Of a stretch of 64,000 bases of DNA, positions 3,655 through 28,054 are shown piece after piece (positions within the stretch are counted from its first letter, which is position 1; each line of letters starts with the position of its first letter). The position numbers and the translations under genes were made by a program. The stretch is taken from the NCBI GenBank assembly GCA_041389045.1, contig JAWKSQ010000002.1, positions 151,898 through 215,897 on the forward strand, read 5' to 3'. Source of the stretch: Minisyncoccota bacterium (GTDB lineage Bacteria > Patescibacteriota > Minisyncoccia > Phycocordibacterales > UBA918). Below the pieces are notes generated by a model that made no database searches, had not been told where the DNA came from, and saw only the letters and a list, made by a program, of their open reading frames with translations.

Positions 3655-4722
3655 TTAGATGAGACGTTCTAGACCTTTAGGGTTGGTAGAAAAGGTAAAA
3701 GCATTCTCAACGGTAATGTCACCATTTTGAACCAACTTAGCCAAAGAACGATTCATATCAATCATGCCATGTTCAAGACCAGTCTCAATAACCGAAGCAA
3801 TTTCATGAATACGATTTTCACGAATCAAATTACTGACAGCGGTGTTGTTGATTAGCAGTTCATAAGCTGGTACTAGTCCGCCATTGATATGAGGTACCAA
3901 ACGCTGTGAAAATATAGCAATGAGAGAACTAGATAACTGAACTCGAATTTGACTCTGTTGATCACCAGGGAAACTATCGATAATACGACTAATGGTTTGG
4001 GCTGCGTCATTAGTGTGTAAAGTCGAATAAACTAAGTGTCCCGTCTCAGCAGCTGTGACGGCGGTAGCGATAGTCTCCATATTACGCATCTCACCAACCA
4101 AGATTACGTCGACGTCCTGTCTAAAGGCAGCATTAAGTGCTGACTGAAAACTAACAGTATCAAGCCCAACTTCACGCTGGTCGATCAGTGACTTTTCTTC
4201 TTTATAAACGTACTCAATCGGATCTTCAATAGTCACAATATGTTCGGATCTCGTTTGGTTAATCTTATTAACCATCGCCGCTAAAGTAGTAGACTTACCT
4301 TGACCAACTGGCCCTACACACAGAAAGAAACCTTGCGGTCTTTGGGTAAAAGTTTCTAGAATTGGTGGCAGGTTTAATTCTTCAAAAGTTCTAATCACGT
4401 TGGGAATTAATCGAAAAGCAATCGCTTTCTTACCACGCTGAAAAAAGGCGTTACCACGAAAACGTACCTGATCTTCGTTTTCATAAGAGAAGTCTACTTC
4501 CTCTCGCTTCTCCAAGCGCTCGAACTGATCTTTACGCATTACTACCTGAGCAAAGCCGGTGATATCGCCATCAGTCAAAATTGGTTTCTTTAAGAGTGGC
4601 ATCAATTTACCAGAGATTCTAATTAGTGGATGACTACCAACAGAAAAATGAATATCTGACGCCTTTTCAGCAATCAAAATGTCAATTAAAGCTTTTAGTT
4701 CTAATTTATAATTAACAGCCAT
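3655..4722 (-). CDS. pilT: twitching-motility retraction ATPase PilT
   Basis: 355 aa with Walker A GPVGQGKSTT, GEMRNMET and the HLVYSTLHTNDA motif typical of the PilT family. Confidence 0.9.
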   Translation of the reverse strand: MAVNYKLELKALIDILIAEKASDIHFSVGSHPLIRISGKLMPLLKKPILTDGDITGFAQVVMRKDQFERLEKREEVDFSYENEDQVRFRGNAFFQRGKKAIAFRLIPNVIRTFEELNLPPILETFTQRPQGFFLCVGPVGQGKSTTLAAMVNKINQTRSEHIVTIEDPIEYVYKEEKSLIDQREVGLDTVSFQSALNAAFRQDVDVILVGEMRNMETIATAVTAAETGHLVYSTLHTNDAAQTISRIIDSFPGDQQSQIRVQLSSSLIAIFSQRLVPHINGGLVPAYELLINNTAVSNLIRENRIHEIASVIETGLEHGMIDMNRSLAKLVQNGDITVENAFTFSTNPKGLERLI

Positions 4723-4724
4723 AG

Positions 4725-5108
4725 TTAACTTTTCTTAACATAGTCATTAACAATCTTCTCGACATTCTGGACTACTTCACTCGGAATGGAGTGGGCTTTG
4801 ATAATATAACCAATCGCACCAGCCTGTGTTGCTTCTTCAATATCTTCATCTTGACCCTGGTTAGAAAGAAAGATGGAGTATTTCAACTGACTATCGAATC
4901 GGTCTTTGATAATTTTTAGTAACTCCACTCCAGAAGTACCGGGCATCACCATGTCTAAAATAAGTAAATCAAAAGTAGAACCATTTTGAAATTTAGAAAT
5001 AGTTGAGGCACTACTATCTGCCACTTCGACAGTGTGTCCGCAACTAATAAACTTAGACGCGTACATGTCTCGCAAAAAATCGTCGTCATCAACTAAGAGT
5101 ATCTTCAT
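4725..5108 (-). CDS. stand-alone response-regulator receiver (CheY-like)
   Basis: MKILLVDDDDF...LLILDMVMPG...K is a receiver domain with no output domain. It sits between pilB and pilT. Confidence 0.85.
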   Translation of the reverse strand: MKILLVDDDDFLRDMYASKFISCGHTVEVADSSASTISKFQNGSTFDLLILDMVMPGTSGVELLKIIKDRFDSQLKYSIFLSNQGQDEDIEEATQAGAIGYIIKAHSIPSEVVQNVEKIVNDYVKKS

Positions 5109-6918
5109 CAGTTATGATTATATCCTTTTTAGGAACTATATTCTCGGGGTTATCGACAGTATCTGGTTCAGAGAGTTCATTTTCCAAACCTATCTTAGTA
5201 CCAAAAGCGTTCATTTCTTCATAAGGTATCACGTGCTCGAGTGCCTTGATGATGGCATCTTCCTTCATTGGCATAAAACCATTTCGTCTAGCGACTTGGT
5301 AGATCTGATCCTCTGAAGCGTTATGGAGAATAAGATCTTGTATCTCGTCAGTTACTTCAAGTGCCTCCATCACAGCTACGCGACCCTTAAGACCAGTAGC
5401 ACAACCTGGGGTTGGTTCAGGGTTAACCATGGTTTTATTTTTAGGAATTCTGTTATGAAAACGTTCCGGTAGAGTTTTAAAGTTTTCTTCCATCATCATT
5501 TGAGTACTCTTACTCGCCTCATGCACAATACCCGTACCATCATTAATTCTTCTCGCTAGACGCTGGGCAATGGCAAGCTTGAGAGTCGGCGCAATCAAGT
5601 AAGGATCGACCCCCATATCAATTAAACGCGGAATCACACCGATGGAATTATTGGTGTGAATAGTAGACAACACCAAGTGACCAGTCAGAGCCGCCTGAAT
5701 GGCTAGCTGGGCTGTTTCCTTATCGCGGATCTCTCCCACCATAATAATGTCTGGGTCTTGACGAAGAGCAGCTCTAAGACCATGAGCAAACGTGTAACCA
5801 ATCTCTGGTCTAACTTGGGACTGACTTACTCCTTCAATATTATATTCAACTGGGTCTTCCAAAGAGAGTACATTCTTAGTCAATTTGTCGACCTCCGCCA
5901 ACATCGCGTATAGCGTAGTAGACTTTCCTGAACCAGTCGGACCAGAAATGAGAATAATCCCGTAAGGTTCCTTAATCGCCTTCCTGACTACCTGAAGTAA
6001 GTGTGGGGAAATTCCAGCATCCTCAAGCGAACGAACGCCGTGCTCATTATCTAAAATACGCATTACCACCTTCTCCCCATGATTAGTGGGTAAAACTGAC
6101 ACACGGAAATCAATCTTACGCCCATCAAAAATAGCTGAAAAACGTCCATCTTGTGGTTTACGCTTCTCATCTAAACGCATCGAGGAAAGAATCTTAACTC
6201 TCGCCACTACCGCTTGGTGCACATTCTGTGGCAACTCAAGAGAAGTTGCTAGCTCACCATCAACGCGAAAACGCACTACAATCTTGGTCTCACTAGGTTC
6301 AATGTGAATATCAGAAGCCCCACCATCTACCGCATAGCGTAGCGTCGTGGCAACAATCTTTGTCACCGGGGCATCTTCCTCAATATGTTCAATTTCTTTT
6401 TTTTGTAAAGCCTCACTTTCATCTGAACCAGCTGCTATCTCAGCATCGAGTTCGCTCTTTAGACTCACCAATGCTTCAGTAACATCTCCTTTGAGATTTT
6501 CGTAAAAATGCTGGGCTCGCGTGATGTCAGCATCAAGCATAAACACTAGCTTGTAGGTTATGTCTAGTTTACTAGTGATAAAGTTCAACACTTCCCTCAC
6601 CTGTAAATTCTCTGGATCATTGGCTCCCACATAAAGTAGACCGTCTTCAACCTTTAGTGGCACTATCCGATAATGAATAGCTGACTCTTCTTGAATATAC
6701 GACAAAACTTCCTCAGGAATATTAAAACCTTCTGGAATAATAAAAGCCGGCACTTCGTAATATTCGGCAAAAAGGTTACGGACCACTTCGCTAGAGATCC
6801 CCATTTCTATCAAAACAGCCTCTAGCGATTTTCCTGTCTCTTCTATAGTCTCGTTTACTTTCTGCGCAAAATCTTCAGTGACATGACCATTACTTATCAA
6901 CTTATCCAATGGATTCAT
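5089..6918 (-). CDS. pilB: type IV pilus assembly ATPase PilB/GspE
   Basis: 609 aa with Walker A GPTGSGKSTT, GEIRDKETA and HLVLSTIHTN, plus an N-terminal GspE_N-like region. It overlaps the receiver gene by 20 nt. Confidence 0.9.
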   Translation of the reverse strand: MNPLDKLISNGHVTEDFAQKVNETIEETGKSLEAVLIEMGISSEVVRNLFAEYYEVPAFIIPEGFNIPEEVLSYIQEESAIHYRIVPLKVEDGLLYVGANDPENLQVREVLNFITSKLDITYKLVFMLDADITRAQHFYENLKGDVTEALVSLKSELDAEIAAGSDESEALQKKEIEHIEEDAPVTKIVATTLRYAVDGGASDIHIEPSETKIVVRFRVDGELATSLELPQNVHQAVVARVKILSSMRLDEKRKPQDGRFSAIFDGRKIDFRVSVLPTNHGEKVVMRILDNEHGVRSLEDAGISPHLLQVVRKAIKEPYGIILISGPTGSGKSTTLYAMLAEVDKLTKNVLSLEDPVEYNIEGVSQSQVRPEIGYTFAHGLRAALRQDPDIIMVGEIRDKETAQLAIQAALTGHLVLSTIHTNNSIGVIPRLIDMGVDPYLIAPTLKLAIAQRLARRINDGTGIVHEASKSTQMMMEENFKTLPERFHNRIPKNKTMVNPEPTPGCATGLKGRVAVMEALEVTDEIQDLILHNASEDQIYQVARRNGFMPMKEDAIIKALEHVIPYEEMNAFGTKIGLENELSEPDTVDNPENIVPKKDIIITDEDTLS

Positions 6919-10508: not shown

Positions 10509-10916
10509 TTATTCAAATGCTTTAACCGGGTCTCCATGGCGGTGCTCTTTAGCTAGGTCAAGCATTGCCGCCACGATTGTCAGACTTGCGAGTTTACGAA
10601 GAAGCGTTCGGCCACTCATGAAGTGGTTAGTTACTGTGCCCAGACCAACTTCGGTCAGGGTAGTCCGAGTCGAAGCGCCGTAGCCCCTCTCCTTGCGCTC
10701 GATCGTCGCTTCATCGCCACCACGGCCAAGTGATGCGATTAGACCGAGCTTGTCGTCGCCCCATGCCATGAGTTCTCTCTCAACCTCCGCCTGAAATTGA
10801 CACATGAACCACTGGGCGTTGATCATTTCAGGATTTCTAGATATGGATTGCCACACCTCAAGCACTCCCATCATCTGCCTAACGACGTTGTACAGGTATT
10901 CAAGGTTCTTTCGCAT
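10509..10916 (-). CDS. hypothetical protein in a patch that looks GC-richer
   Basis: An AAGGAGA Shine-Dalgarno lies upstream of ATGATTATG. I recognise no family. It is adjacent to the tRNA-Ser fragment repeats. Confidence 0.5.
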   Translation of the reverse strand: MRKNLEYLYNVVRQMMGVLEVWQSISRNPEMINAQWFMCQFQAEVERELMAWGDDKLGLIASLGRGGDEATIERKERGYGASTRTTLTEVGLGTVTNHFMSGRTLLRKLASLTIVAAMLDLAKEHRHGDPVKAFE

Positions 10917-11040
10917 AATCATTCTCCTTGAGAGGAGTTTCCGCTACCCAAAATGGACAGTACCTATGCGACAAGGTACTTAAGCGAAGCTAATAAATTA
11001 GCTTATATATAGGAGCACATTTTATGCTATCAGTCAATCT

Positions 11041-21557: not shown

Positions 21558-23888
21558 ATGTCCCCTTCTGACTTACTAACTATTCACTTCCGCTTAGATG
21601 AACCTCATAAAAAGGCGCTAAAACGACTTAGTATCTTTACCGTTGAGGATTTACTACTCCACTTACCACAACGCTACGAGGACATTTCATCCATCCAATC
21701 AGTTGGTTCACTAACGAAAGACCAAGACGCAGTGGTGTTTGGTAAGCTAGGTGGTCTCAATACCCGCAAGAGCTGGAAGAGTCGCGTCCCTATTTCTGAA
21801 GGTTGGGTGGAAGACGGTACCGCCCGTATTAAAATCATGTGGTTCAACCAACCATACATAGCCAAAATGCTGACTGACGGCATGTACGTTAAAGTCGCTG
21901 GTAAAGTTACTGGTAGCGAGGACAAGCTTTACCTGGCGAACCCTGAAGTCGAAAAAGCTCGACAGCCTGCCGATTGACCGCCACGATTCCATCTTTAAAA
22001 ACACCGAACAATTAGATGAAACGATTTACCCCGTCTATCGAGAAACCAAGGGTGTCACCTCTAAGTGGTTCTTTCATAATGTGCAAAAATGCTTCTCGGC
22101 CGGGATTTTGGATAAACTTAAAGACCCAATACCGGAGGAAATTCTAAATCGCTACAACCTACCGACTCTAAAGACCGCCTTGCAGTGGATTCATACCCCG
22201 AAGAAAGCTGAGCACGCCGAAAGTGCGCGTAAGCGTTTTGCCTTTGAAGAAGTTTTTTATATCCAGACCACCAAAGCTAAAGAGCGAGCGCAAGTGAGTG
22301 TCGCTACTAGTTATCAATTCAATACCGATAAAGAACACATCAAGGCTTTCACGGAAAGGTTTCCTTTTGCCATGACCGGAGCGCAAACTAAGGCTCTCAC
22401 TGACATTCTCAAAGACTTCGGTGGTAAGCATCCGATGTCACGCTTACTTGAAGGTGACGTTGGTAGTGGTAAGACAGCAGTAGCGGCGTCCGCCGCCTAC
22501 GCGGTTGCTACTTCTCGTCCGCCAGAGGGGACTAAAGGGTCTACAAAAGACTTATTACAAAAAATAAATCCGCCAGTTTTGTGGACAGTTCGAGGCGCGG
22601 CCAAAATGACGGAGGAAATGTAGAAGACTACTTTGACGACGACACTTTTGAGTCGCAACAAAGAAATGTCCCAAAACTGGCGGATTTAGAGTTCGGAAAC
22701 TTGCAGGTAGCCTACATGGCCCCCACCGAAATTCTCGCCAAGCAACACTTCGAATCCTTCATCGAATATTTCAAACACCTCCCCATTCAAATTGGCCTGA
22801 TTACTGGTAGTGGTTGCATGAAATTCCCTTCTAAGACCAATCCCGAGAAACCGACTCCGATCTCACGCACTCAGCTACTAAAGTGGGTAAAGAATGGTGA
22901 GATACCAATTCTGATTGGTACCCACGCCCTCATCTATAAATCGGTTGAGTTTAAACATTTGGCTTTGGTGATTATTGATGAACAACATCGCTTCGGAACC
23001 GGACAAAGACGAGCCATCGCTAAGAAAGACACCAGAATGCCACACCTACTTTCGATGACTGCCACTCCTATCCCTCGCACCTTAGCCCTTACTGTCTATG
23101 GTGACTTGGACATTTCCCTGCTAGATGAGATGCCTAAAGGTCGCAAGCCTATCATTACTAAAGTAGTCGCCCCAAGTGGTATAGAAAAAGTCTACGACCA
23201 TTTGACAGAAGAACTAAAAGCTGGTCGCCAGGCTTTTGTCATCTGTCCACGGATCGATGAACCAGATCCGAGTAAAGAAAACGCTCTCCAACTAAAGTCA
23301 GTCAAGCAAGAAGCCGAGCGACTCAAGGCTAAAGTTTTTCAGTCAGCGCGCATTGATATTTTGCATAGCAAAATGAAGCCTGCCGAAAAAGAGCAAGTGA
23401 TGAAAAGATTTCTGGATCACGAGATAGATATTTTAGTTGCTACCTCGGTGGTAGAGGTTGGAGTCAATGTTCCCAACGCCACTAACATCATTATCGAAGG
23501 CGCGGAGAGATTTGGTCTGGCCCAACTACACCAACTACGGGGTCGGGTCATCCGTGGCACTCATCAAGCCTACTGCTTTGCCGTCACTTCCAAAGACACC
23601 ACCGGCAAAAGTGGTAAGACTTTAGAGAGACTCAAGGCCCTCACTACCGCCAAGAACGGTTTCGAACTAGCTGAATACGACCTAACTATCCGTGGCAGTG
23701 GCGAACTTTATGGTATGAAGCAGTGGGGTCTAACTGACCTCGGTATGGAAGCGATTAAGAATATCAAAATGGTCGAAGCTGCGCGCAAAGAAGCGAAAGA
23801 ATTAATCGCGCAAGACTTTGAATTAAAGCAATATCCGCTCATCGCGGGTAAAATAGCTCTCTTGAGCAAAGAACTTCATATGGAGTAA
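21558..23888 (+). pseudogene. recG: ATP-dependent DNA helicase RecG in three frames, with an extra segment after Walker A
   Basis: ORFs 21558-21977 (wedge domain), 22081-22623 (GDVGSGKT) and 22581-23888 (MAPTEILAKQH, IIDEQHRFG, helicase C) make up one gene. The first shift is at the A5 run 21952-21956. The second is inside the inserted segment at 22510-22690. Confidence 0.85.
22566..22687. repeat. 122-bp segment inside recG bounded by 15-bp perfect inverted repeats
   Basis: aaatccgccagtttt (22566-22580) and aaaactggcggattt (22673-22687). The recG stop and frame change lie between them. Confidence 0.7.
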
Positions 23889-23928: not shown

Positions 23929-23956
23929 TTGACGTATGTGTCTCTGGTGCTAATAT
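23929..23956 (+). promoter_or_regulatory. sigma70-like promoter
   Basis: TTGACG (23929-23934), a 16-nt spacer, then TGcTAATAT (-10 at 23951-23956). Confidence 0.5.
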
Positions 23957-23962
23957 CATACA

Positions 23963-24150
23963 TGACTGGTGCCGGTGGTCTGCCAAAGCCACATCACAAC
24001 CGTTGCCCAATGGACAGCGCTCCACCTGGCCCAGTCAAACTTTCACAAAGTGTGAAAAGTTCTTTACCGCTACAGTTTAATTACAGTAGCCCCTCGCGCC
24101 GGTGACGCGTCACCATTTTTGAAAGCCTCGACATTTGTCTGGGCTTTTTT
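23963..24150 (+). ncRNA. candidate small RNA of unknown class (about 190 nt)
   Basis: Runs from the promoter above to two tandem terminators (ggtgacgcgtcacc+T5 at 24101-24120 and agcctcgac..gtctgggct+T6 at 24124-24150). It has internal hairpins and no ORF. Confidence 0.3.
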
Positions 24151-24269
24151 GCATTAATTTTCCAACTCTAGTTGCATTAAAATTAACTTTAGGTACGATA
24201 AAAAAGTGACGTCCCGGCTTAAAAGACTTTTGACCGGATTGCTCTTTTCACCACATTGGAGATGGACAA

Positions 24270-24731
24270 ATGTTTGATCAATCAAAACTAACCCCTGGCC
24301 TCGAAGAGTGCTTGATGTTGGCCTACATTGAGGCAAAGCTTGAGCGAAGGAAGGAATTATCGACTGAGCAAGTTTTACTCATGCTACTTGAAAACACACA
24401 AGTAGTAACGATATTGAACAAATTCAACATCAACATCAGGACCTTGCGAGCTGGTCTGACAAACCACATCAATGCAAACGAACCCATACTGGATGGTGAC
24501 AATGAAGTCAATCCTGAGGCTTCCACTAGTATGACGAGGATCTGTCGACACACTCTTACGTTAAGGTTTTTCAAAAGTGCAGAGAAAGAACCAATTTCTG
24601 AGTCAGACTTTATCTTGTCACTCGTAACAGACGACACGACAGTCGCGTCACAATTACTTGCAACTCAAGGAATGGACCTAGACAAGCTACTTTATGAACT
24701 AGTTTTAGGATCAGACAACAAACGTTTCTAA
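24270..24731 (+). CDS. stand-alone Clp N-terminal (Clp_R) repeat-domain protein
   Basis: LEECLMLAYIEAKLERRKELSTEQVLLMLLEN and a second repeat ...ESDFILSLVTDDTTVASQLL resemble the ClpA/B/C N-domain. GGAGA SD. Confidence 0.6.
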   Translation: MFDQSKLTPGLEECLMLAYIEAKLERRKELSTEQVLLMLLENTQVVTILNKFNINIRTLRAGLTNHINANEPILDGDNEVNPEASTSMTRICRHTLTLRFFKSAEKEPISESDFILSLVTDDTTVASQLLATQGMDLDKLLYELVLGSDNKRF

Positions 24732-24807
24732 ATATGGCTCCCAGCCCCGATTTGGCTCCGCCAAATCGGGGCTAAATCATGCCAAATTTGACCACATCCA
24801 AAAACGC

Positions 24808-24836
24808 TTGACAATAGTTAGGTACTGTGCTATTGT
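24808..24836 (+). promoter_or_regulatory. near-consensus promoter
   Basis: TTGACA (24808-24813), a 17-nt spacer, then TGcTATTGT (-10 at 24831-24836). Confidence 0.55.
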
Positions 24837-24844
24837 AATTATCT

Positions 24845-25304
24845 TGCACTGCTGAAGCATCCGTTTCAGATCACAGATTGGCAAGTGTGTCCCAACTAGG
24901 AGTTGCCCAAATGACAGATCCCCCCAAGCACGGATTCAAGGAGTTCAAATTTTCGTTTTCGGCCATGCGCATTTCCGTTTCCTCGCTGGGCGCCGGCGGC
25001 CACTGACCGGTGCTGGTGGCTGGTCTAGGCTCTCGCGGGCTCGAGTTCAAGTTTTTGCCCGCGCCGCCCTGCCGGACCAGCCGTTCTTTGCCACACTATG
25101 TGTGGCGTAACCGAGCCGGGTTGGCACCGCCGCCAACCCGCTCAGAATCAAGGAGAACGTCCATGACTTGGCGAAGTTAAAAGTTCATCTTGCGGAGAGT
25201 ACGACACGGCGCAGTCGTACGAGGTTAGCCCCGAAAAGCCCCACTGCAGCTAACCAAACTGACCATCACAAACCTTCGGGTAAGTGATGGTCTTTTTCTT
25301 TTTG
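24845..25304 (+). ncRNA. candidate approx. 460-nt highly structured GC-rich RNA of unknown class
   Basis: Bounded by the promoter above and a strong terminator (gaccatcac..ttcg..gtgatggtc plus T-run, 25261-25304). It has many GC helices, for example gagccgggttggc/gccaacccgctc, gtacgac/gtcgtac and ccacac/gtgtgg. The only ORFs are tiny SD-led ones (24911-25006 of 31 codons, 25163-25180 of 5 codons). Confidence 0.35.
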
Positions 25305-25447
25305 TAAATTTAAGTTTCGATAGAGTTTTTATATTTAATTTTTGAGTTTAGTGTAGACAGAGTGTCAATGGCTGGAAAACGCCTCAGCGTTTTCCAGTCA
25401 TTTGTTTTCAATCCTGGAGTACGTTATAGTTTCCTAGCTATTGATAC

Positions 25448-25523
25448 CCGTCCGTAGCTCAGTTGGTAGAGCCGTCGTCTTATACACGACTGGTCCCAGG
25501 TTCGAATCCTGGCGGACGGACCA
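25448..25523 (+). tRNA. tRNA-Ile (UAU), CCA encoded
   Basis: Cloverleaf: CCGTCCG/CGGACGG acceptor, GCTC..GAGC D-arm, anticodon stem GTCGT/ACGAC with loop CTTATAC, T-arm CCAGG-TTCGAAT-CCTGG, then A-CCA. Confidence 0.9.
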
Positions 25524-25573
25524 TTGTGATAATAGTAAACTATTTTTACTACGATAAGGCAAAAGACTTCAAA

Positions 25574-26227
25574 TTAAATATCTTTAGCTAACACTTTAAG
25601 TGTGGTCAAAACCTTATCAGTAAAATCCCTGTCTCCGACTATGACGTTACAGGTACCATGACCAAAACCTTTCCTGGACAACACTTTTTGTTTAGTTTTT
25701 TTGATTTGTGGCTTATTAAATTGATTTATTGGTATGCCTAACTGACTGTGCCAAAAATTTATTTCTTTTTTTATATCCATATCATGGTACAAATGCAAAC
25801 GAATTTTCACCTTATCAGCTTTTACCCCTAATAGAACTAACCACTTCAGATAGAATCGAATCATCGCCACATCAGTATTTACCAGTGTTGTGGTATAAGG
25901 ATTTGTCTTACCACCTTCACCCCAATACAGAAAGAGACCACCAATGAAGACATCTCTTTTACTTAAAGTACCGAGTTCTTTTTTTATCTTAACCTCAAGT
26001 CTGGCTAAACGCTCCGTTCTTTTTGCTAACATTGTGCTCCTAAATTTTTCGATCCTCCGTGGTGAGTTCGCTCTTAAATCATTTATTTGTTCGATTGTTA
26101 ATGGCATATCTCTCAACCATAAACTAAGTGTGCTTTTACTAACACCCAGCTTAGACCTTATAGTACTGTAAGGTAACCCTTTAGCTCTTAATTTTAAGGC
26201 TTTGATCTTTAATTTATGTAAAGACAT
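25574..26227 (-). CDS. HTH protein with a possible LAGLIDADG-like endonuclease core
   Basis: The N-terminal KGLPYSTIRSKLGVSKSTLSLWLRD is an HTH. The central FIGGLFLYWGEGGK resembles a LAGLIDADG-type motif. It is free-standing beside a tRNA gene. Confidence 0.35.
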   Translation of the reverse strand: MSLHKLKIKALKLRAKGLPYSTIRSKLGVSKSTLSLWLRDMPLTIEQINDLRANSPRRIEKFRSTMLAKRTERLARLEVKIKKELGTLSKRDVFIGGLFLYWGEGGKTNPYTTTLVNTDVAMIRFYLKWLVLLGVKADKVKIRLHLYHDMDIKKEINFWHSQLGIPINQFNKPQIKKTKQKVLSRKGFGHGTCNVIVGDRDFTDKVLTTLKVLAKDI

Positions 26228-26280
26228 GGTTCACTTATTATATCGTATTCCTTGGTTCGCACTACAAGAGTATTAGAAAA

Positions 26281-26456
26281 TTAAGAAGCGGAGCGACTAT
26301 AATTCACTTATGCGGAGTATACAAAAACAAGGAGTGTAGCAACATGTTTTTAATGCGATAGTTTCCGAATATATAGTCGCTTCGCTTCTTAAAAACTAGG
26401 TCCACCACAAGAGTATTTCCGTTTTTATAGTCGCTTCGCTTCTTAAAAACTAGGTC
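26281..26456. repeat. inverted plus tandem repeat set upstream of the efflux operon
   Basis: ttaagaagcggagcgactata (26281-26301) is the inverted partner, with 1 mismatch, of tatagtcgcttcgcttcttaaaaactaggtc. That 31-nt sequence occurs twice (26372-26402 and 26426-26456). An SD-led 5-codon ORF (26344-26361, MFLMR) lies between them. Confidence 0.8.
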
Positions 26457-26548
26457 ACTCCAAGTTGGCGGACACAGGAATTTTCTATCAACGCCCTCCT
26501 TAAAAAAGGTCTTCTCAAGCTGGTATACTATTAGTATATAGATATCAT

Positions 26549-28054
26549 ATGAATGTTCTGTTTTCGAAAAACTTTTGGTTATACTTATTATTGATTGCTG
26601 TAAGTGTCACTAGCTTTGTTGGTTACCGTATTTACTTACAAAACCAAGTGGAACCAACTGAAACTACTCAAGTAACAAACAATACCGTTGAACAAACTGT
26701 TACGGTGTCTGGTAAGATAGAGGCCAAAAAAATCGCCAGACTAGGTTTTGCCTTTTCTGGCACTATTCAAAACATCTACAAAAGTGCTGGTGAAAATGTA
26801 AAAGAGGGAGAAGTCATTGCCTCCCTTACTAGTAGTGCCCTGGTGGCTGAGTACTCAGCTGCCTTGTCACGAGTAAAAGCCCTTGATCAATCCAGGCAAC
26901 AACTAGTGCGTGGAGCTACTGAAGAAGAAAAGAAAGTCGCTAGAACCAATGTCCAAATTGCTACCACTAAACTAGCCAACGCAGAAAAAGATTTTGCTCA
27001 GATAGTCAATAACGCAAGACAGTCACTACTCTCAACCGGCCTACAAGCCTACCCAACAAACATTAATAACAATGACGTCCCGCCCACTATTACCGGCAGT
27101 TATACTTGTAAGGACGAAGGATCTTACACACTATCGCTCTTTCCATCAAATGCCGGTTCCGGGCTGTCTTATTACTTAAATGGTCTGAGTTCAGGTACAT
27201 ACACAGCCAACTTCGACACTCCAACTCCACTTGGTGACTGTGGTCTCTTTATCCAATTTGCGCTTGGTGAAAATTACCGCACTGATGACTGGGTGGTCAG
27301 TATCCCTAATAAACGAAGTAGTAGCTACGTAACCTTAAAAAATAACTACGACCTAGCGGTCGCTGAGGCTGAGTCAGGTATTAAAGCGGCTAAAGAAGCT
27401 TTGGAATTAGCAAAGGACAACGAAGAAGTAATACTATCCCCAGTCACTACCGAACTTCTTTCTGAAGCCGATGCCCGCGTCCGAGAAGCTGAGGCGCAAC
27501 TAATCGCTCAAGATGCTCGGGTGTCTGACTACACTATCCGTGCACCCTTTGATGGAATCATTACTGATGTCAGTATGAAAGTGGGCGAACCAACTGGCCC
27601 CAACCATTCCATCACTATAGTTTATGAAGGTGAATACGAATTAAAAGCGCGCATTCCTGAAATCGACATTACTAAAGTAAAAGTTGGTAATAACGTAAAG
27701 GTAAAATTCGATGCTGACCCAAATGAAGAATTCACTGCTAACATCGCTTTTATTTCCCCTATTTCATCAGACATTGGTGGTGTTGCTTACTATGACGCCT
27801 ACATCAATTTAGATAAAGATCCTACTTGGTTGCGGGAAGGACTAAATGCTGACGTAATTATCGAAAGTCAAAAGAAAGTTGGCGTACCAACCCTCCCGAA
27901 AAGATTTTTAATTTTTAATCCCGACGGTACTTTCGTACTACAAAGATCCGGTGACTTAATTGTTAAAACACAAATCGCAACCGGTCTTGTAGGCACAGAT
28001 GGCTTTGCCGAAATAATCGACCTACCTGTTGGCTCAGAAGTACTACTACCATAA
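26549..28054 (+). CDS. HlyD/MacA-type periplasmic adaptor
   Basis: 501 aa with an N-terminal TM helix, a coiled-coil hairpin and a beta-barrel region (YTIRAPFDGIITDV). It is the first gene of the adaptor-permease-ATPase operon. Confidence 0.8.
   Translation: MNVLFSKNFWLYLLLIAVSVTSFVGYRIYLQNQVEPTETTQVTNNTVEQTVTVSGKIEAKKIARLGFAFSGTIQNIYKSAGENVKEGEVIASLTSSALVAEYSAALSRVKALDQSRQQLVRGATEEEKKVARTNVQIATTKLANAEKDFAQIVNNARQSLLSTGLQAYPTNINNNDVPPTITGSYTCKDEGSYTLSLFPSNAGSGLSYYLNGLSSGTYTANFDTPTPLGDCGLFIQFALGENYRTDDWVVSIPNKRSSSYVTLKNNYDLAVAEAESGIKAAKEALELAKDNEEVILSPVTTELLSEADARVREAEAQLIAQDARVSDYTIRAPFDGIITDVSMKVGEPTGPNHSITIVYEGEYELKARIPEIDITKVKVGNNVKVKFDADPNEEFTANIAFISPISSDIGGVAYYDAYINLDKDPTWLREGLNADVIIESQKKVGVPTLPKRFLIFNPDGTFVLQRSGDLIVKTQIATGLVGTDGFAEIIDLPVGSEVLLP

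Follow-up and report, generated by a model that had tools for sequence, protein, structure and literature searches.

What does the GC-rich segment between recG and the gene for tRNA-Ile(UAU) in this 64-kb stretch of Minisyncoccota DNA (64,000 nucleotides [nt]; below, the window) produce: an RNA, a peptide, or both? The segment, here called the element, runs from a promoter at 24808 to a terminator that ends near 25304, and a preliminary description had offered three options for it, namely, a novel large structured noncoding RNA, a dual-function RNA encoding a micropeptide, or a leader/attenuator. We evaluated its reading frames, its predicted fold, and its counterparts in related genomes. We consider it probable, with some reserve, that the element is an autonomous, strongly promoted, terminator-bounded mRNA for a 31-amino-acid (aa) protein, with a second, very short open reading frame (mini-ORF) led by a Shine-Dalgarno (SD) sequence in a multi-hairpin 3′ region. 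Such an mRNA would be either a two-cistron micro-operon or a dual-function RNA. All features of the element given below lie on the plus strand.

Boundaries and composition of the unit

The promoter, including a conserved upstream block, occupies 24776 to 24836: a −35 hexamer (TTGACA, 24808 to 24813) is followed, after a 17-nt spacer, by an extended −10 element (TGcTATTGT, 24828 to 24836). The site at 24808 to 24836 was the top promoter-like site in a scan of 24000 to 26600 (10/12 matches), and the promoter block occurs once in the window, with no second copy. Transcription is predicted to start near 24843, at a 5′ leader stem-loop (24843 to 24885) that was present in both the minimum-free-energy and the centroid folds. 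At the other end lies an intrinsic terminator (25261 to 25303), whose 9-bp stem GACCAUCAC..CC-UUCG-GG..GUGAUGGUC bears an inner CC-UUCG-GG cap and is followed by UUUUUCUUUUU. This terminator closes the minimum-free-energy fold; the internal loops in its stem caused it to be overlooked by a simple terminator scan. The 5′ limit of the unit, read from the sequence, is a perfect 14-bp palindrome (AGCCCCGATTTGGC-TCC-GCCAAATCGGGGCT, 24743 to 24773), a bounding hairpin that is probably the terminator of the upstream Clp_N-like gene. The analysis in silico thus sets the boundaries of the unit, from which we infer its transcription into an RNA with a predicted length of about 460 nt (24843 to 25303).

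The GC content is 0.60 to 0.67 over 24900 to 25250, versus 0.43 for the whole window. The plus-strand fold has an energy of −172.2 kcal/mol (z = −3.5 against dinucleotide shuffles; minus strand, z = −2.6). No ORF of 60 codons was found in the element, the longest being 59 aa on the minus strand and 56 aa, with a GTG start, on the plus strand. The tRNA-Ile(UAU) gene lies downstream at 25448 to 25523 and has its own conserved promoter/−10. On all these points the preliminary description held up: the promoter, the terminator, the absence of an ORF of at least 60 codons, and the coordinates that it listed were recovered at or within 1 to 2 nt, its five named G/C helices were all in the minimum-free-energy fold, its two SD-led ORFs (24911 to 25006 and 25163 to 25180) read as claimed, and the tRNA was where it had been expected. 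A reading of the element as a repeat or mobile element was rejected, since the 64-kb window contained no further copy.

The element matched no known RNA family, be it RNase P, the signal recognition particle RNA, 6S, tmRNA, a riboswitch, or a large noncoding RNA such as OLE, GOLLD, HEARO, or ROOL. At gathering thresholds, Rfam covariance models returned only the tmRNA and two tRNAs for the whole window and only tRNA for ten homologous loci. Relaxing the threshold to an E value of ≤10 on 24650 to 25450 gave junk only, far below gathering scores and mostly outside the element or at its edge. The earlier search by eye had likewise found no RNase P motif, signal recognition particle helix-8 motif, or cobalamin-riboswitch core. 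Pfam and NCBIfam gave no match for the peptides at an E value of ≤1, and the other frames had no Pfam match.

Homologous units in related genomes

RecG was used as the anchor for related loci (numbered with the prefix L), which were collected by exact-protein look-up and by one metagenome scan that returned 80 loci. RecG has hundreds of relatives at 75 to 95% identity, one of them named Kaiserbacteria. The 153-aa Clp_N-domain protein upstream of the element shares 100% identity with a protein from a metagenome-assembled genome annotated as Candidatus Paceibacterota, which bears out the origin in the Candidate Phyla Radiation (CPR) assumed by the preliminary description. Among 5.8 billion proteins, it has only two other relatives, in L001 (65% identity) and L002 (57%). 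L001 is syntenic with the window and carries the element. In L002, nothing but a terminator separates the Clp_N stop from a tRNA that is truncated at the contig end (anticodon loop CUUAUA), and both the bounding hairpin and the entire unit are absent.

Searches with the element itself (blastn and nhmmer) recovered only L001 and a promoter fragment in L056 and L061; sequence searches found almost nothing beyond L001, and further members were recognized by architecture. By this definition there were twelve distinct homologous units, always between recG and tRNA-Ile(UAU) and on the tRNA strand. Besides the window and L001, they are in L056, L057/58, L060 (=L140-145), L061 (=L146), L062, L064, L067, L147, L148-153 (read in L150), and L154/155 (read in L154). 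The shared order is a bounding hairpin, a promoter, a 5′ stem-loop, an SD, a GC-rich ORF, UGA, and two to six GC-rich hairpins, followed by one or two SD-led mini-ORFs of 4 to 9 codons, more hairpins, and the terminator. The promoters of the relatives have the same TTGACA-N-TGCTATnnT form, the 5′ hairpin occupies the equivalent place with a different sequence, and a hairpin plus U-run ends every homologue. In L001 the promoter block is 97% identical over about 95 nt (including the bounding hairpin), the bounding hairpin is identical although the flanking Clp_N protein is only 65% identical, and the terminator tail GGTCTTTTTCTTTTT is identical as well.

The unit-bearing relatives have RecG proteins at least 84% identical to that of the window (84 to 95%), except for L061 (78% in the metagenome scan). 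Some equally close relatives lack the unit: in L066, recG leads directly to the tRNA, and L059, L063, L065, L156, and L158 have other small units in the recG-tRNA interval instead. The unit is thus either there in full or missing altogether. A peptide profile run against the 5.8-billion-sequence protein database and against 1.84 billion protein representatives returned only the known family members, and no DNA match to the element was found among phages and plasmids. As judged from these searches, the family would be undescribed, narrow, and confined to a few uncultured Paceibacterota bacteria, and it matches no Rfam, Pfam, or NCBIfam family.

The translation signals of the element stand out from those of the window. 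Most window genes lack an SD; many have a TATAAT-like box located 6 to 12 nt ahead of the ATG, a sign that their mRNAs may be leaderless. The small number of window genes with an SD tend to be GC rich (10509 to 10922, 48237 to 48632, and the element). Strong SD-plus-ATG sites number about nine distinct ones on the plus strand of the 64 kb, and two of these are in the element. The rarity of such sites, together with the recurrence of the architecture in relatives, indicates that the arrangement is more than chance.

A coding signature in the first ORF

The first small ORF (sORF1; 24911 to 25006) consists of 31 codons and UGA, encodes MTDPPKHGFKEFKFSFSAMRISVSSLGAGGH, and begins at an ATG preceded at 8 nt by the SD AGGAG (24898 to 24902). 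An SD, typically of the CCAAGGAGA type, lies 6 to 8 nt before the ATG in 12/12 homologues, the corresponding ORFs are 31 to 63 codons long, and the stop is UGA in every one. In the window the GC content by codon position is 0.48/0.48/0.74, and in all 12 units it is highest at the annotated third position (0.72 to 0.95, versus 0.44 to 0.76 at positions 1 and 2); such a codon-phase preference is lacking in the 3′ regions of the units. Several family members had been annotated by gene callers.

The predicted peptides are rich in Ala, Gly, Ser, and Thr and are hypervariable, with a more conserved N terminus. Eight of the 12 have Pro-Pro at residues 3 to 8 (P value = 1.5 × 10−9 given their own proline content), and these pairs are written with varying CCC and CCG codons. 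An N-terminal MxDPPxH is common to the window (MTDPPKH) and L147 (MHDPPQH), and AGAR[C/H/N]..TT occurs near the C terminus in L056, L150, L060, and L154. Between the window and L001, sORF1 is barely alignable overall. Where the window's SAMRI-SVSSLG aligns with TAIKIASVSAVG of L001, the two differ by a 3-nt in-frame indel, a synonymous ATT/ATC change, and conservative replacements, including an R-to-K replacement made through three base changes. The periodicity of third-position GC, the spacing of SD and ATG, the Pro-Pro motif, and the in-frame indel with conservative changes all argue for coding, and from this signature, obtained in silico, we conclude that sORF1 has the marks of a real, rapidly diverging small-protein gene. 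The family appears to be lineage restricted and very fast evolving, and its peptide may be an accessory product under rapid diversification.

Two other ways of reading these frames were rejected. The first was read-through of the UGA or its use for selenocysteine: sORF1, its UGA, and the mini-ORF do share a frame in the window, but L001 reads the conserved core in another frame with extra stops, and the 3′ regions have no periodicity. The second was a gene on the minus strand, where open frames exist, as GC-rich DNA would lead one to expect, but with flat composition, inconsistent phase, no periodicity, and no conservation. On these units, gene-calling programs occasionally annotate long antisense ORFs that are spurious.

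If the peptide alone mattered, sORF1 could be a gene for a secreted or antagonistic product (bacteriocin-like, like the precursor of a ribosomally synthesized and post-translationally modified peptide, or acting on a host), with the fold serving only for mRNA stability and the hypervariability reflecting diversifying selection. Small size, the Gly/Ala/Ser/Thr-rich and hypervariable sequence with its steadier N terminus, and a strong promoter would suit this explanation, as would a variable accessory island with signal-peptide proteins, a RelB-like gene, and small membrane peptides and an exporter operon (HlyD-like/FtsX-MacB/ATP-binding cassette [ABC]) that is always nearby. However, none of the 12 peptides has a signal peptide or a double-glycine leader, and they contain almost no cysteines; no modifying enzyme or peptidase-containing transporter is adjacent in the window or in the relatives; the HlyD/FtsX/ABC proteins have no peptidase domain, and their operon is syntenic with or without the unit. 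No precursor family of NCBIfam or Pfam was matched, and the conserved mini-ORF would be left unexplained. We therefore regard this explanation as unlikely.

A small toxic peptide whose mRNA is controlled by an antisense RNA, as in type I toxin-antitoxin systems, is extremely improbable here. The unit resembles such systems in being a self-contained, highly structured mRNA for a peptide of <65 aa in an accessory island, with a RelB-like gene adjacent in some loci. The peptides, however, are polar or of low complexity and have no membrane-spanning stretch (maximal 15-residue Kyte-Doolittle mean, 0.98 in the window and ≤1.5 in all 12; grand average of hydropathy mostly negative), and there is no minus-strand promoter-like site in 24000 to 26600 and no conserved antisense ORF or RNA.

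The foreign composition of sORF1 raises a further explanation, that the element is a remnant of high-GC DNA, a decayed or truncated gene left without present function in a recombination hot spot beside a tRNA. Its composition is like that of a genome with 65 to 70% GC (third-position GC of up to 0.95, noncoding GC of 0.55 to 0.65), the island beside the tRNA is variable, sORF1 and the mini-ORF stay in one frame across the UGA in the window, and a longer GC-rich gene with similar flanks occurs at 48237 to 48632. Yet the promoter, SDs, ORF, mini-ORF, and terminator are retained across lineages whose RecG proteins differ by up to 16%, no homologue was found in any other organism in the protein databases, phages, and plasmids searched, and the 3′ region has no residual codon periodicity, with the window and L001 reading it in different frames. 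No profile search gave a similarity to a longer protein spanning the element, as a pseudogene or gene fragment would be expected to give. We judge the remnant explanation highly improbable.

A conserved mini-ORF in the 3′ region

The second SD (AAGGAG, 25150 to 25155) lies 7 nt before the ATG of the mini-ORF (mini-ORF2; 25163 to 25180), which reads AUG ACU UGG CGA AGU UAA, or MTWRS. We defined a mini-ORF by a 5-nt SD core, a gap of 3 to 9 nt, and an ATG opening an ORF of 2 to 10 codons, and we took the expectation from dinucleotide shuffles. Such SD-led mini-ORFs were found in 9 of 11 homologous 3′ regions versus 0.13 expected (P value of about 7 × 10−18).

The mini-peptides themselves are related. 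The MTW type comprises MTWRS (window), MTWRRRYG (L147, AUG ACA UGG CGA..), and MTWH (L154, AUG ACC UGG CAU UAG), with MHWK (L064) and MDWP (L062) as related forms; other types are MIFRYRT (L067), MIFRIQMS and MSPFRL (L150), and MFRLS (L154). Within MTW, Thr is written ACU, ACA, or ACC, and within FRL, Leu is written CUG or CUC. The distance from AUG to UGG is always exactly one codon, and the sequences flanking the mini-ORFs in the window and in L147 cannot otherwise be aligned. Synonymous codon use and the fixed AUG-UGG spacing point to translation rather than to an RNA motif. In six mini-ORFs, CGA comes directly after an aromatic codon ([W/F]-CGA). Two mini-ORF modules are present in each of L150 and L154; a GGUG-GAAG-CACC hairpin follows each L150 module and the first L154 module, and the two L150 copies differ by a compensatory pair. 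On this in silico evidence, the mini-ORF is a conserved feature of the family and looks translated.

A 3′ core conserved as RNA in two genomes

The 3′ region begins with hairpin P1 (GCGCCGG/CCGGUGC, 24990 to 25013), whose loop holds the sORF1 stop codon (25004 to 25006). Its counterpart in L001, CCAGCAG/CUGCUGG around an identical GCCACUGA loop, keeps the helix through two compensatory pairs, and in most homologues the sORF1 stop lies in or beside a GC hairpin. The hairpin is followed by a structured core (P2 to P5, 25015 to 25143) that is 85% identical to L001 (about 105 nt). Its predicted helices are P2 (25015 to 25025 with 25075 to 25085), P3 (25034 to 25040 with 25057 to 25063, enclosing a 16-nt U-rich loop), P4 (25090 to 25096 with 25100 to 25106), and P5 (25113 to 25125 with 25132 to 25143). 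RNAalifold on the window and L001 gave 40 predicted pairs across P1 to P5, none of them broken. In seven pairs both partners are changed (P1, two; P4, one; P5, four), and another seven are changed on one side, to or from G-U. The covariation support is thin, two sequences being too few for a statistical claim. The window and L001 read 25015 to 25110 in different frames through 1-nt indels, which indicates that the core is conserved as RNA in these two genomes, as far as in silico comparison can tell.

Beyond the core the two sequences diverge up to the terminator tail. Two distal hairpins, P6 (25199 to 25205 with 25214 to 25220) and P7 (25223 to 25229 with 25249 to 25255), together spanning 25199 to 25255, are present in the minimum-free-energy and centroid folds of the window and are not alignable with L001, which has different hairpins there. 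Complements of the conserved P3 loop occurred in the window at chance level only. A loop-anchored core pattern gave three chance matches, in Proteobacteria, among species-representative genome contigs (in which the window's own genome is apparently not included), and three core patterns gave only chance matches in viral contigs.

Could the whole element be a noncoding structured RNA, its ORFs by-products of GC richness and its SD-like motifs contacts with other RNAs or with the ribosome? The stable fold, the core helices kept with compensatory changes, and a core more conserved than sORF1 would agree with this, GC-rich sequence does keep all frames open, and neighboring loci have other ORF-less promoter-to-terminator RNAs. 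Such an RNA would not, however, be expected to have frame-specific third-position GC and an SD and ATG at fixed spacing in 12/12 units, an in-frame indel, or synonymous variation inside conserved MTW, FRL, and PP; moreover, the structured core is absent from 10/12 members, and Rfam has no match. The explanation is very unlikely in our view. The first option of the preliminary description, a novel large RNA in the noncoding sense, accordingly gives way: the best-conserved features of the family are translation signals and reading frames, and the helical core is common to one close relative only.

Weighing an mRNA with two reading frames

Several findings weigh against reading the element as an mRNA for a small protein with a mini-ORF in a folded 3′ region. 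Within 759 kb of related loci, the core was confined to the window and L001; the ten remaining members lack it and have different sets of hairpins. The mini-ORF is not universal either, for the second ORF of L001 has only a weak SD and L057 has none. The peptides have no significant pairwise similarity to each other in blastp, so that their kinship is drawn from synteny, shared flanks, and short motifs, and chance alone would give ORFs of 30 to 60 codons in GC-rich sequence, which tends to be open in all six frames. Third-position GC of 0.72 to 0.95 is foreign to a host whose window genes have about 0.3 to 0.45, and this reading does not account for it. AlphaFold2 gave the peptide no fold (mean predicted local distance difference test score, 66; predicted template modeling score, 0.14; no secondary structure); the Gly/Ala/Ser/Thr-rich tail of the sORF1 family is predicted to be disordered. 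Finally, the coupling mechanism proposed below was derived purely from geometry.

Set against these points are the features by which dual-function small RNAs are recognized, which were found in silico: a promoter and a terminator of its own, conserved across 12 homologues, and a putatively translated small ORF. Of the options in the preliminary description, a dual-function RNA with a micropeptide thus comes closest, given the coding signature in 12 homologues, the conserved 5-codon ORF, and a 3′ part conserved as RNA; a two-cistron micro-operon is the other form that this reading could take. Conservation in relatives, whose absence the description would have taken as a refutation, was found for the architecture in 12 units and for the core sequence only in L001.

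How translation might act on the fold

In the mechanism that we propose, the 5′ stem-loop, the 3′ hairpins, and the terminator would stabilize the transcript into a long-lived message, and ribosomes would load at two of the few strong SD sites of the genome. The predicted products would be the sORF1 peptide, with its stretch MTDPPKHGFKEFKFSFSAMR, and fMTWRS from mini-ORF2. A ribosome covers roughly 12 to 15 nt beyond its A site. One terminating at the UGA (25004 to 25006), which lies in the P1 loop some 10 nt short of the P2 5′ arm, would therefore open P1 (25007 to 25013) and the start of that arm (25015 to 25025), and translation of the mini-ORF would open 25150 to 25190. Translation might thereby be coupled to how the 3′ domain folds or how stable it is, and the unit could act through the peptide, through the RNA, or through both.

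The same geometry would serve a translation-sensing riboregulator or attenuator, in which both ORFs are sensors rather than products. D-P-P would make sORF1 translation depend on elongation factor P, Mg2+, or proline supply, as in mgtL/mgtP, the aromatic-CGA mini-ORF would report ribosome or tRNA status, and the position of the ribosome would set the fold of the 3′ domain and, with it, terminator read-through or the activity of a trans-acting RNA domain. SD-led mini-ORFs of 4 to 9 codons followed by hairpins and a terminator are classic leader-peptide anatomy; the six [W/F]-CGA mini-ORFs, the Pro-Pro near the N terminus in 8/12 peptides, the sORF1 stop in a hairpin loop adjoining a long-range helix, and sORF1 codons that are rare for the host all fit a sensor, and the window has a second SD-led 5-codon ORF, in the attenuator-like leader of the HlyD/MacB operon. 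There is, however, no constant co-oriented gene downstream for it to regulate. The strong terminator ends the unit, and what follows varies by genome: the tRNA with its own conserved promoter, an opposite-strand gene of 328 to 341 aa, or separately promoted small genes. It is on these grounds that the leader/attenuator option of the preliminary description was set aside. Furthermore, third-position GC periodicity and conservative replacements imply selection on amino acids, which a pure sensor does not need, and no antiterminator pairing was identified in the minimum-free-energy and centroid folds, the only ones computed, with no systematic search for alternatives. On balance a sensor of this kind seems rather unlikely to us.

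Two more specific ideas are offered as speculation. One, quite improbable in our estimation, is a new class of translation-gated riboregulators specific to SD-poor CPR bacteria. In it, a stable RNA would draw ribosomes to two of the genome's scarce strong SD sites, and the status of ribosomes or tRNAs, sensed by the DPP-containing sORF with its UGA in a hairpin loop and by the M-x-[W/F]-R(CGA) mini-ORF, would be passed on to the fold, and through it to the activity or lifetime, of the 3′ domain. The other is that the message could be built for translation in a high-GC partner cell, a thought prompted by its host-foreign codon usage (third-position GC of up to 0.95) and its strong SDs.

Comparison with known systems

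Dual-function RNAs such as Staphylococcus RNAIII/hld, Streptococcus Pel/sagA, SgrS/SgrT, and SR1/SR1P encode peptides of 26 to 53 aa, and RNAIII (514 nt) and Pel (about 459 nt) are of similar length to the element. Like it, these RNAs are self-contained, densely folded, and a few hundred nucleotides long; the SD-led peptide ORF lies in the 5′ half, and several hairpins make up the 3′ domain. SagA, too, is rich in Gly, Ser, and Thr. The element shows no sequence or covariance-model similarity to these RNAs and differs from them in having an extra conserved mini-ORF, a 3′ domain that is not conserved family-wide, and a host-foreign composition.

Leader-peptide attenuators (trpL, pheL, ermCL/ermDL, and mgtL/mgtP) share with the element few-codon SD-led ORFs, hairpins, and an intrinsic terminator, and MxDPP recalls the acidic/proline N terminus of MgtL (MEPDPTP). 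The element differs in that its unit contains no regulated gene farther downstream, that a longer coding ORF precedes the mini-ORF, and that no alternative pairing was identified. Minigenes are another parallel, for SD-led ORFs of 2 to 8 codons are functional in bacteria, as in microcin C mccA (7 codons), the lambda bar minigenes, and the 23S rRNA E-peptide. These, too, are very short and SD led, and some lie directly before a stabilizing or terminating hairpin, but the element has no MccB-like partner and no C-terminal Asn, and its motif is M-x-[W/F]-[R/K/H]. Type I toxin mRNAs (hok, tisB, ibs, and ldr) likewise combine a long folded mRNA, a very small protein, and an accessory region; unlike theirs, the peptide of the element is not hydrophobic, and no antisense promoter was found. 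By analogy, the functional likeness of the element would be greatest to the coding regulatory RNAs (RNAIII/hld and Pel/sagA) and in part to leader-peptide devices, and it would be a member of none of these classes.

CPR bacteria, or Patescibacteria, have small genomes, and next to nothing is known about their small proteins and regulatory RNAs. Literature searches on small proteins of the CPR and on translation without an SD in Parcubacteria yielded nothing specific. The unit joins predicted SD initiation in a genome largely without it, a codon composition alien to the host, and a fast-evolving protein paired with a mini-gene of 4 to 9 codons. To our knowledge, no earlier description combines predicted translation from SDs in a genome poor in them, third-position GC foreign to the host, a small protein of hypervariable sequence, and a conserved mini-gene, all within one small clade. 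If the translation signals are real, the family would provide a handle on how SD-dependent and SD-independent initiation coexist and on the role of short translated ORFs inside structured RNAs.

Neighboring genes and other small units

Around the element, the window contains recG, the Clp_N gene, a helix-turn-helix gene on the opposite strand, and the HlyD-like/FtsX-MacB/ABC operon. In the window, recG is split into three ORFs (21558 to 21977, 22081 to 22623, and 22581 to 23888; region, 21558 to 23888), while the relatives all have a single 728-aa gene; this could reflect either a pseudogene or assembly frameshifts.

In this clade, the recG-tRNA-Ile(UAU) interval appears to be a breeding ground for small RNAs and small genes. 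In the window, a second small promoter-to-terminator unit lies just after recG (23929 to 24150, TTGACG-17-TAATAT). In relatives (L056, 7190 to 7390; L059, 1754 to 2040; L154, 3582 to 3800), the promoter lies right against the recG stop, and the RNA that it drives is C rich, ~200 nt long, and without an SD or ORF. In L063 (about 1850 to 1990) and L156 (about 5770 to 5900), a small RNA unit in the interval carries (G)AGGAGGUGAUCC, which complements the canonical 16S rRNA 3′ end perfectly over 12 to 13 nt with no start codon after it, and this unit could be an anti-SD-binding RNA. Three other loci (L140, 2911 to 3120; L147, 4681 to 4836; L062, about 4690 to 4900) have a separately promoted SD-led gene after the element for a small protein with a hydrophobic N terminus (51 to 69 aa in L147 and L140; not delimited in L062), a possible partner gene that is absent from the window.

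Many units in these genomes are bordered by perfectly palindromic hairpins that lack a clear U-tail. Downstream of the element, at 25367 to 25402 of the window, is a hairpin (GGCTGGAAAACGC...GCGTTTTCCAGTC) that closely resembles one (GGCTGGAAAAGC...GCTTTTCCAGCC) on the upstream side of the element in L056 (7413 to 7449).

Elsewhere in the window, a GC-rich region (48042 to 48790; GC, 0.62; third-position GC, 0.75) has an SD-led gene for a 131-aa protein (48237 to 48632) between two similar hairpins. The protein has a signal-like N terminus, a Gly/Ala-rich C terminus, and no Pfam match; its UGA stands in a GCCUGA context, and an SD-like site and AUG lie just downstream. The gene may be a longer relative of the cassette class of the element, although the sORF peptides had no significant blastp similarity to the 131-aa protein.

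The leader of the HlyD-like/FtsX-MacB/ABC operon (26274 to 26548) has a promoter (TAGAAA-18-TATAAT), an AAGGAG, and a 5-codon ORF (26344 to 26361; ATG TTT TTA ATG CGA TAG, MFLMR). It also contains 41-nt direct repeats (26362 to 26402 and 26416 to 26456) and inverted repeats (26281 to 26302 and 26425 to 26446), and as read from its sequence it looks like a ribosome-dependent attenuator.

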